Below are positions 49,288-52,200 of a stretch of 64,000 bases of DNA, piece by piece. The position numbers and the translations under genes were made by a program. The stretch covers positions 62,001 through 126,000 of the forward strand of contig CAJINV010000007.1 in NCBI GenBank assembly GCA_905178155.1, given 5' to 3'. How positions within the stretch are numbered: position 1 is the stretch's first letter; the number at the start of each line of letters is the position of its first letter. The notes below the pieces were generated by a model. The model saw only the letters and a program-made list of their open reading frames with translations, searched no databases and was not told the DNA's origin. This DNA comes from Amoebophrya sp. A120 (Eukaryota; Protista; Dinoflagellata).

Positions 49288-52200
49288 TCATATGTGAATG
49301 CTACCGTGCTCCTGCCGCCCATGGGTGGAACTTCCGCCATGCATGTTCTCCTGGTAGATCTCCCTAGTGACGGTGGTGTCGTACAGCCCGTGATGGTACT
49401 CCCCGCGCTTGGTGTCTCCGCCAGGGTGCGCCGCGGCAGAGGTGCCGCTGCTCCCGCCGCCGCCGAAAAAGGTCGTGAAGGCGTTCGTTTTTGCCGCGTT
49501 CGCGAATTGCGTCGTTTGCTGGTGGTTTTCACGATCCATATAATCCTGGTCGAAGCTAATTGTGGCCGATTCGTCCAAGTCTCCCACTTTCCCCAACTGT
49601 TTCAACGATTCGATCTTCCCGTCCACCAGTGCGTTTTCGTTCTGCAGCGTCTCGATGCTGAATATGACCTACTCAAACGTTACAATCTCAAGCGTTACAA
49701 TAGAATCTGAGATTTGTCTTGCATGATTTTTTTTTTTTTTTTTGCCAGGGCTGGGGGGCAGACTCGAGGACAGTGGTCCTCTCCGCCATGGGCTACCACA
49801 CGATGCACATGCAAAAACTTATTGCCCCAGCCGGATCCGATGCGATCCACAACATATAAAAACACAACCGACATCATATAAAACAGCATATAAATCTTCA
49901 GAGTTCCGGATCTTCGTCGAGTTGTGCGTAGACCGCAGAGCGGACCTACGCAGAATATACCTTTCCCCGTCCACAGCCCTTGCTTTCTATCTTGCAGTAT
50001 GCAGTTTCCAAAAAAAGTAATAGATTTCTTCGCCAGTTTGTTGTTGGTTTAATAATATATTGATATTCTATTTACATTTTTCTCAGCTCTTACTTTTCAA
50101 ATTTGTTTACAAATCATATCCAGATCATCTGCTTCTGGGAGCTGACGTAATTGAAAAGTAAGAGCTCCGCATGAAAGAACTGCAAACGTGAATATCAGCT
50201 TTTTCTCTTGAGCCCCCAACAAACTGCTTTACTCTATTACTTGCATTGCGTATTAAATTTTCCTTTCCTCCTGGATAACCGTATTCCACCGTCAGGTCGA
50301 CCGTGCGCATGACTAAGACTAACAAGGATACTCAGCTTACATCTACTTATCTTTACTACAAGAAAAGAACTTACTGCAATTTTTATTGCTGTACCTCGCC
50401 TCCTTCTAATTAAGCTTCTTACTTTTTCTCGTTCCAGCCGGTCCGCTAGTACGGAACCACCGCAGCCATGACATCTTTATGCGCTGATGCCGCCGGAGCC
50501 CGTGCATGGTGCCAGACATGGGAAGGACTTGCACCATACCCACGGGAACAGCAGCATCAGCGGGTGGATATCACGTCAACGCTGATCCCGCACTGTTATG
50601 TTCTTCGTTATTCCTTCCATCAGGGTAGCTGGGACAGGAACATCGACTAGATCATGAGCGCACTTTTGCCGTAGCCCGACGTTGTTGCGCCCTGGGATCT
50701 CGCCTGGCATTTGTCTACTTTTTCTCCCATCGACATCGTCTCACCACTTGTTGACTAATTGACGGGCAGACCAGGCGGCGGCATGTTCATGATGACGGCC
50801 TGGGAGCGATCCGGCCGGCTGCTTATCGGCAACTCGCTGCTCCTAGCTTTATAGCTGCTTGGAGAGAAAGAGCGTTCATCTCTTATTTTTTTATAATAGC
50901 ATGACAAATCTATTCGCAGCAAAATGTTGCAGAATCTCCCTGCGCATTGCATCCTTGGATTTTTGCTATGAATTGCTGCATCTGCGAACACACCTAGAGA
51001 GAAAGTTTTACTTTAGGGGTGCCTCTTTATCATCATTCCACCAGCAGGCTCTACGTCGCCATCAGCATTCATCTAAATTGGTTTTTGCTGTCAGCTCCAC
51101 ATCGTTCACATTTCTTTTTCGTTTAGCACCCACCAGATGTCAGCTCCATTGCCGTTCTTTTTTTTTTTATTATCTTCGTTGAAGTTATTTCATGAAAAAA
51201 AGACTAAGCTTTTCGTGATCTGACGCTGTGACTTCCCATGAATCTCCTCCTGTTTCGGTTTCCCCCACCTTGTTCTGCAGCTTGTTCTGCGCCCTCGTTT
51301 TGGTCCGCTTGTTCTTCGTCATCTTGCCCATCACGCTCAGCACCGTCTTCCCCCTCCGCCCGTTGCGCATGGACTGGCACCGCGTTGAAGAAGTTGTTGA
51401 TGTCGAGCGCCAATATGTGATTATTTGCGCCGTGTCTGGGGCGTTCTTGGGGTTCTTCTTGTCCTAGCACCCGGCGGATGAGTTGCAGTATTTCCGGTCC
51501 CATCAGTCCTTGTCTTACTCCCATCGGTACTGTAACCGCAATATCATCCCCAAATTGTGCAACAGCTATCTCTTCTTGTGCTGCTTCGTCATTATTTTCT
51601 CGTGCCATTTTTTCCTTTCCTAGCACGCATGACAAATTCATAAAAAATTTCTTCAGCCCCGCTCTGGGGTTGGTCGGGGCAGGGGGTTCAGAAGGGGTCC
51701 TGTCTGTCAGTGCATATCTCCATTCCGTGCATCATGTCACAAAGAAGACATCCGGGTATACAGGTATTCTTGCTCGTAGCAGAAAGGAAACCTTGATCAA
51801 GCTTCAGAGGTAAATAAACACCGGTCAGCACAAGAAGTAAAGGGAAGATCTATGGAGCAGATCCTTTTGGCAGAGGAACTGCGGAACGGGGGGAGGCCGC
51901 AACAAAAGGGGGAAAGAAGGATCCTATATAGGCACAAAACAAAAGACAAAAAGATCACAAAATGCCTTTTCATGATGAACATGACAGACTCGGACAAAAA
52001 GATTTGTCTTGCATGATGAACATGACAGACTCGGAGAGCATTCCACTTTCTGCAATACAAATTTCGCCAGATTGTAGTGCGGATTGGGACTCCAGAACTT
52101 GTCATGCGCAATACTATGAGAGGTGGCTAGATCATGCCCTTTTGCATCACAGATTTCCATATTCTATTGTAACGTTTGAGATTGTAACACCTGAGCGGGT

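Follow-up and report, generated by a model that had tools for sequence, protein, structure and literature searches.

A poly(A)-tailed retro-insert in an Amoebophrya intron carries a short ORF with reverse transcriptase-like motifs in reversed (C-B-A) order

Non-autonomous LINEs that code for a protein are known, and this protein is thought to multimerise with the proteins of the partner element (PMC5786205). In the accessible part of that text HeT-A, HAL1 and Ag-Sponge are poly(A)-tailed, carry one short ORF and no working RT, and depend on an autonomous LINE (Jockey, L1 or CR1); their protein is the counterpart of ORF1p. RIME, NARTc, SIDER, Vingi and R2 derivatives are bipartite, short and dependent and have kept the 3' end of a LINE; they have no ORF and no protein and arose by colinear deletion, and as their sources the cited text names RTE, Ingi, Vingi and R2 only, CRE being absent there (PMC5786205, PMC12278014). 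SLACS, CZAR and CRE1/2 of the CRE clade combine a motif A of the form D-x-x-N-x-F-N with GVRQG..GP, poly(A), TSD and a repeated target, which in the case of trypanosomatid CRE elements is the spliced-leader gene (PMC12278014, accessible part). The polymerases of birnaviruses and permutotetraviruses, which are complete viral RdRps, have motif C before A in the order C-A-B (10.1101/2021.03.02.433648, PMC3724706); the palmprint preprint, in its accessible part, recognises the orders ABC and CAB only (10.1101/2021.03.02.433648), and the C-B-A printed once in the background of PMC3724706, with C-A-B in its results, is probably a slip.

The insert described here is alike to HeT-A, HAL1 and Ag-Sponge in poly(A) tail, single short ORF, lack of a working RT and apparent dependence on a LINE; to the RIME-like and R2-derived elements in shortness and, presumably, in dependence and a kept LINE 3' end; to the CRE elements, together with 36 metagenome CRE-type RTs collected in this work, in the wording of motifs A and B, poly(A), TSD and repeated target; and to the permuted viral polymerases in the position of C before A. 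In the open-access literature (main texts) no C-B-A RT and no RT-derived mini-ORF in a non-autonomous LINE was found; the supplements of PMC7789003 and PMC12130899 may list this repeat.

The insert lies in a 64-kb stretch of Amoebophrya DNA, called the window below (the whole stretch that was analysed). Short exons and many repeated introns with inverted ends make up the window, an architecture like that given for Amoebophrya genes in the accessible text of PMC7789003. The following boundaries were obtained:

49658-52204, minus strand: host intron, an introner-type repeat with terminal inverted repeats and a 6-nt border direct repeat; 2547 nt including the insert
49728-51999, minus strand: retro-insert, ca. 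2.3 kb, poly(A)-tailed, TSD-flanked, inside the intron
49728-49743, minus strand: poly(A) tail, 16 nt (16 A)
52000-52017, minus strand: 18-nt TSD, 5' copy (sequence repeat)
49710-49727, minus strand: 18-nt TSD, 3' copy (sequence repeat)
51971-51994, minus strand: 24-nt copy of target DNA at the 5' junction, exact match to 52035-52012, 5 nt into the insert

In the whole window the 18-nt TSD sequence has two occurrences only (52017-52000 and 49727-49710), and the 16-A run 49743-49728 passes directly into its first A; of seven A-runs of at least 10, a long flanking duplication was observed at the run of the insert only. Joining of the flanks gave a repeat of ca. 255 nt, the counterpart of an uninterrupted relative at 7664-7915 (80-90% alike to the host repeat) that carries the target once and represents the empty site. 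Mobilisation by target-primed reverse transcription is supported by the poly(A), the TSD and this single-copy empty site; the sequence-only reading, made earlier from the letters of this DNA, had proposed it from the tail and the TSD. The 24-nt duplication at the 5' junction may have arisen when the RT switched to target DNA as its template; template jumping is an in vitro activity of the R2 non-LTR RT, for which the same paper, in its accessible part, doubts a physiological need (PMC8857657).

Since a contig of run X5, a run only guessed to be RNA, joins 49657 to 52205 and skips both intron and insert, the insert lies within an intron that is still spliced out. Inverted ends, direct repeat, repetition and splicing, the features of an introner, were all found. 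The sequence-only reading was right as to the hallmarks of the insert and missed its location inside a spliced inverted-repeat intron element. The non-canonical introns and introners of Amoebophrya (PMC7789003, PMC12130899) are alike to the host intron in inverted ends, short direct repeat, non-GT borders and repetition; this likeness concerns the landing site only, the accessible parts of both papers mentioning non-LTR elements and no mini-ORF element. A retroelement sheltered in a spliced introner would leave the host mRNA intact. Two more introns of the host gene, 48619-48887 and 49043-49302 (minus strand), were joined out in X5 contigs and have non-GT borders and short direct repeats. Comparison of the host exons with Pfam gave nothing above one chance match. 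Runs X9 and X10 (RNA) matched only repeats and no host exon, X3 matched nothing, and these three are uninformative on expression.

Further features of the window were recorded separately. The stretch 46091-47728 contains ca. 27 tandem copies of a G/C-rich hairpin unit of ca. 50 nt between 102-nt inverted arms (99% complementary) and is an inverted-repeat element of young age that encloses a minisatellite; at 8465-10130 a short-unit repeat and an assembly gap are flanked by perfect, nested inverted arms (85-86 nt); diverged tandem-repeat arrays with units of ca. 129 nt and 41 nt occupy 57005-58240 and 58722-59375 (plus strand). A complete spliced-leader motif of the type given for dinoflagellates (PMC12014239, accessible part) was found at 17842-17863 (minus strand; exact 15-nt match), directly followed by GC as a possible donor site; judged by its letters it is a candidate spliced-leader RNA gene, and Rfam gave no match at gathering score at this motif. 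About 950 nt upstream on the same strand, a 601-aa ORF (18812-20614, minus strand) matched the integrase core weakly (rve, E 0.00025) and could be an integrase-type DNA element that lies beside the leader gene or targets it. Of the 204 window ORFs, 68 were scanned, and these included no RT. For the whole window Rfam returned 0 matches at gathering score, with one chance miRNA match (E 2.8) near the insert; thus no ribozyme family was matched.

The ORF of the insert and the three RT-like segments within it were located as follows:

51204-51608, minus strand: ORF, 134 aa; the start is acidic, aa 14-79 form the C-B-A core, and an acidic tail with 13 D/E (aa 80-113) leads to a basic end with 7 K/R (aa 114-134)
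51528-51569, minus strand: segment resembling motif C, aa 14-27, FGDD; both low-confidence models have a beta-hairpin here, its turn at GD
51495-51527, minus strand: segment resembling motif B, aa 28-38, GVRQG..GP; CRE RTs have one residue more here, and a helix is predicted next (aa 37-48)
51375-51419, minus strand: motif A-like segment, aa 64-78, with catalytic-position Asp69; matched by Pfam, NCBIfam and CRE profiles

An upstream in-frame ATG at 51641 would lengthen the ORF to 145 aa; the start at 51608 is favoured because the second copy described below has no corresponding in-frame ATG (read by eye at a loose contig end at 51620). The words AQFGDDIAV (aa 17-25), MGVRQGLMGP (aa 29-38) and an A-like stretch (aa 65-78) occupy one stop-free frame, and the catalytic-position residues D21, D22 and D69 are all there. 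A single Pfam family, RVT_1, matched the ORF, at the motif A segment (E 0.072-0.19; 0.14 for the ORF, 0.072 for the core; ca. 3-6e-6 per family), and a single NCBIfam family, retron RT, matched the same segment (E 0.017-0.21); per family the E values of these motif A matches are ca. 1e-6 to 6e-6. For an ORF in an independently recognised retro-insert this is a strong motif A match.

Two profiles of CRE-type RTs were prepared. From at least 119 metagenome loci fetched by the motif B pattern, 37 passed a CRE-type filter and 36 unique sequences were used. Motif B scores with this profile are circular because its members were fetched by the GVRQG pattern; therefore a second profile, not selected for motif B, was built from a query upstream of that motif, which matched 9 of 226 candidates (8 used, the query P0001 itself being dropped). 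CRE-type non-LTR ORFs of 1071-1275 aa on metagenome contigs (L005, L019, L025, L037, L047, L056, L060, L064, L070, L072, L073 and L076) served as controls.

Motifs A, B and C, lying in the ORF in the order C-B-A, were the top three ungapped diagonals with either profile: 24.1, 18.9 and 14.1 bits for A, B and C (36-sequence profile); 20.4, 16.5 and 12.5 bits (8-sequence profile). Their sum was reached by 0/1000 and 2/1000 shuffles, respectively, and by none of 250 natural stop-free window pieces of at least 90 aa (of 1053). With motif A fixed, the other two diagonals were reached anywhere in the profile by 4/1000 shuffles and, with the 8-sequence profile, by 38/1000. Shuffles reaching the single motifs: A, 0/5000 (ungapped block), 2/5000 and 46/5000 (block HMMs); B, 1-4/5000 with the profile not selected for B, 1-9/5000 across block HMMs; C, 24/5000 (ungapped), 93-140/5000 (block HMMs; ca. 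2-3%); B and C jointly, 0-1/5000. To judge by these scores, motifs A and B are beyond chance, and motif C is weak when taken alone. The reversed order noted in the sequence-only reading was thus recovered by profile, with A, B and B with C standing above shuffled sequence and C alone doing so weakly (24-140/5000).

The normal RT spacing is absent, as had also been noted: C and B are separated by 9 aa, B and A by 39 aa, the whole C-B-A order falling within 66 aa, whereas in CRE RTs A to B is 50-58 and B to C 36-45 (32 of the 36 CRE RTs, those with all three motifs located). The CRE-like wording was confirmed in the case of motif A, with 24.1 bits vs the CRE profile and 13.7 vs a profile of 10 APE-type RTs; GVRQG or GVKQG is the motif B word also in solved R2 RTs. 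The helix after GVRQG fits neither motif B (2499/5000 shuffles) nor domain 2 or 2a significantly. GC3 of the ORF is 44% vs 75% in the host exon.

Profile searches of 97 frames of the insert gave no complete colinear RT domain, and no further RT or RLE piece stood out. The short ORF 50325-50125, in which a faint likeness to an RLE nuclease had been seen earlier, exists, but its RLE-profile match (E 3.9, 11th of 97 frames) is at chance level, so that this part of the sequence-only reading was abandoned; the best RLE-profile frame of the insert has E 0.51, and the region of this ORF is replaced in the second copy.

Searches for homologues of the ORF were negative: a first search gave 13 candidates, all with E above 1; among longer proteins there were 41 candidates, all with E above 10; 1.84 billion protein representatives, 0 at E up to 0.001; ESM Atlas, no usable match; metagenome contigs, 363 pattern matches, none confirmed; viral contigs, 15 pattern matches, none confirmed, and 0 matches to the C-then-B pattern; exact look-up, 0/5 forms; PDB sequences, 2 chance matches only. 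On viral contigs the motif B pattern had a single match, which is not an RT and was discarded.

Single-sequence structure models of the ORF and of its 78-aa core were of low confidence (pLDDT 49.6 and 49.4). In both, FGDD lies in a beta-hairpin and aa 37-48 form a helix, and in the core model motif A contributes one more strand and helix; hairpin, helix and strand are the elements that these motifs form in RTs. With neither model did Foldseek give a match at E up to 0.001, which at pLDDT ca. 49 excludes nothing. The best fold match of the core model (pLDDT 49) was an eIF1/SUI1-type protein (Z 5.4, rmsd 2.9, 69 aligned), where a Z below 8 may be a mere common arrangement; no polymerase palm was among the 50 VIA fold matches listed, which at this pLDDT likewise excludes nothing.

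Other copies were sought in the DNA contigs of run X1, matched at 80%. The window copy was found at single-copy depth, together with a second copy, 80-88% identical, which is also present in X5 contigs and partly in X7, and the aligned DNA of which has no intron. Compared with it, the remaining parts of the insert are:

51609-51970, minus strand: 5' UTR, pyrimidine-rich, no spliced-leader match; over the 182 nt of 51726-51907 the second copy has 36 differences
50972-51203, minus strand: proximal 3' UTR, common to the second copy, with three gaps
49989-50971, minus strand: variable 3' region, 983 nt here, 390 different letters in the second copy; contains the short ORF 50325-50125
49911-49988, minus strand: conserved 3' block, within the strongest-folding window of the insert; part also in a third element
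49744-49902, minus strand: 3'-terminal region, 83-86% alike in two further elements differing upstream

Differences from the second copy: 28 in 243 nt without gap (51378-51620); 72 and 7 gap letters (50972-51403), all 7 of them in gaps at 51165, 51172 and 51202, which lie just 3' of the stop; 0 substitutions and one 1-nt gap in 51 nt (49938-49988). No gap falls within the ORF, and the 4 listed gap events are all outside it; the distribution has p 0.12 (these 4 events) or 0.04 (6 events, two of them read from joints or loose ends). The residue-level comparison covers codons 69-77 and 79-100, with 40 of 141 differences listed. Ten of those listed fall in the ORF, between codons 79 and 100; 4 are synonymous, and the 6 nonsynonymous ones include two E to D changes. 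Third codon positions hold 6 of these 10 tail substitutions, and pN/pS is ca. 0.42 (p 0.21; the 10 listed ORF differences only). The motif half is less diverged than the 5' UTR (p 0.02) or the pooled UTR (p 0.013), the p value rising to 0.07 without 30 shared nt at a contig junction. The segment 51378-51403 (motif A codons 69-77) is identical in both copies; chance alone would give 0.46 such runs. These comparisons hint at selection on the protein, with a signal that is only marginal (p 0.02-0.2).

The 3' block is clearly under constraint (p 9e-5 at 17% divergence). On folding, the window 49920-50019 of the insert gave z -3.2, the sole one of 37 below -2.5; 49744-49902 gave z -1.9, reached in 9/200 shuffles. 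Two further X1 contigs match the 3' end only (13 differences in 90 nt; 23 in 134), so that, as for a non-autonomous LINE, several copies exist: a second copy of the ORF region and two more 3' ends. One of these two, 2089 nt long and matching 49769-49902 at 83%, has ca. 1.5 kb of other sequence upstream and is a candidate autonomous partner or other dependent family. Another contig, with 99% identity to the final 215 nt of the insert, may be the tail of the second copy or an allele of this locus and was kept out of the evidence.

The look of a non-autonomous, LINE-dependent element is given by the poly(A), the TSD and the conserved folded 3' block common to several elements, and a partner of CRE type is indicated by the motif wording. 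As best read, the insert is a low-copy, protein-coding non-autonomous LINE, with a protein built from RT palm pieces that is probably a non-catalytic helper or decoy. In its full form, the tentatively preferred reading, rated slightly short of an even chance, is that the insert is likely copied by a CRE-type LINE and that the ORF likely gives a small non-catalytic protein of rearranged RT palm pieces, which would aid the RNA of the element in capturing the partner RT, or in competing for it. The partner RT would recognise the conserved folded 3' block and prime at the poly(A). C-B-A is not one circular permutation of A-B-C, therefore at least two rearrangements are needed; a CRE ORF may have given rise to the ORF of the insert through successive template jumps or through duplication plus deletion, and selection may then have retained it. 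Three pieces with catalytic motifs in one open frame, and no other RT piece, would be hard to obtain without selection on the protein. Since fingers, thumb and nuclease are missing, the protein is not a working RT alone; it might join the complex of the partner via RT-like surfaces, as proposed for the proteins of HeT-A, HAL1 and Ag-Sponge, and for contacts with protein and RNA its acidic tail and its basic end would be suited.

Against this stands, as unlikely, a functionless scramble: pieces of LINE RT RNA stitched together by template jumps, in an element copied for its 3' end only, with the ORF as passenger. Template jumping by non-LTR RTs in vitro (PMC8857657, accessible part), the jump-like duplication at the 5' junction and the marginal selection tests would all suit it, but random pieces of a 3-kb ORF would have had to fall on just its three catalytic motifs and to share a single stop-free frame, the insert has no other RT or RLE piece, and in a copy 12-20% diverged the gaps are only outside the ORF. 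Distinctly unlikely is the retrocopy of a host gene, in which the host would have turned RT pieces into a small protein, likely a dominant-negative LINE brake, and the mRNA of this gene would have been retroposed, with the second copy as parent or sister. No spliced-leader match was found in the insert, allowing up to 3 mismatches in 15 nt (a shorter relic or 5' truncation is possible), although the window has the full motif and retrogenes are common in dinoflagellates (PMC12014239, accessible part); the low copy number and the X5 contigs (only guessed to be RNA) covering both copies would fit a gene, but the 3' end is common to elements differing upstream and far better kept than the other UTR, the second copy is intronless across the aligned DNA, and the GC3 is unlike that of the host exon (44% vs 75%).

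Two further readings concern the nature of the ORF itself. That only motif A is RT-derived, in a colinear fragment (helix of domain 2, deletion, motif A) with B and C as coincidental look-alikes, is improbable: aa 30-55 do lie also on the domain 2 diagonal (11.5-12 bits, rank 4th or 5th), motif C is weak and the helix after GVRQG scores at chance as motif B helix, but the block HMMs of domains 1-2 and 2a are at chance (1358-1792/5000) or without match, and B, or B with C, was reached by very few shuffles (1-9/5000 and 0-1/5000). A minimal permuted palm that joins D21, D22 and D69 into a metal-dependent nucleotidyl transferase, e.g. tailing or priming element RNA or cDNA, is highly improbable. 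The three Asp residues are all at catalytic positions and the 78-aa core model is a compact hairpin-helix-strand-helix with 69 residues aligned to eIF1/SUI1-type and ACT-type folds (best Z 5.4, rmsd 2.9); against this, the model has pLDDT 49 and pTM 0.28, a Z under 8 may mean no more than a common arrangement, the protein has no fingers, thumb or primer grip, and motif B is short by one residue. Broader, and doubtful, is the reading that the element family encodes a folded mini-palm with the C hairpin, B loop-helix and A strand re-threaded into an order not seen in known polymerases, as an RT mimic hijacking or blocking the LINE enzyme, or even as a stripped-down nucleotidyl transferase.

Against the preferred reading, a non-catalytic protein encoded by a CRE-dependent element, speak the marginal selection, the weak motif C, the 38/1000 shuffles with motif A fixed, the lack of an autonomous partner among the sequences seen and the pLDDT of ca. 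49. The insert itself is a real, unusual feature; its function we infer. The sequence-only reading had left the choice between a scrambled remnant and a functional RT mimic or decoy, and the balance leans to the functional side with motif scores that beat chance and a gap-free second copy, the selection signal being marginal. If true, a new way to break the preference of a LINE for its own RNA, or a new host brake on retrotransposition, would be at hand; if the core folds, the palm would tolerate a third topology beyond A-B-C and C-A-B in fewer than 80 residues, which would bear on the origin of palm permutations.

In comparison with the known systems, protein-coding LINE parasites keep the ORF1 chaperone, and this one would keep only three RT catalytic motifs, rearranged. 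The protein of HeT-A, HAL1 and Ag-Sponge corresponds to ORF1p and the partners are Jockey, L1 or CR1 (PMC5786205, accessible part), whereas here RT (ORF2-type) motif pieces are reversed, only RT families match the ORF, and the partner is likely CRE-like. Unlike the RIME, NARTc, SIDER, Vingi and R2-derived elements (PMC5786205, PMC12278014), the insert is not a protein-less colinear deletion product; it differs from the CRE clade in having no full RT, no RLE and a reversed motif order, and from trypanosomatid CRE elements in its target, an inverted-repeat intron element instead of the spliced-leader gene (PMC12278014, accessible part). The viral enzymes are complete and C-A-B; the insert is C-B-A, with no full polymerase (10.1101/2021.03.02.433648, PMC3724706). 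It is thus neither a CRE element nor a C-A-B polymerase, and works like a protein-coding non-autonomous LINE, one whose protein falls outside the ORF1 type.
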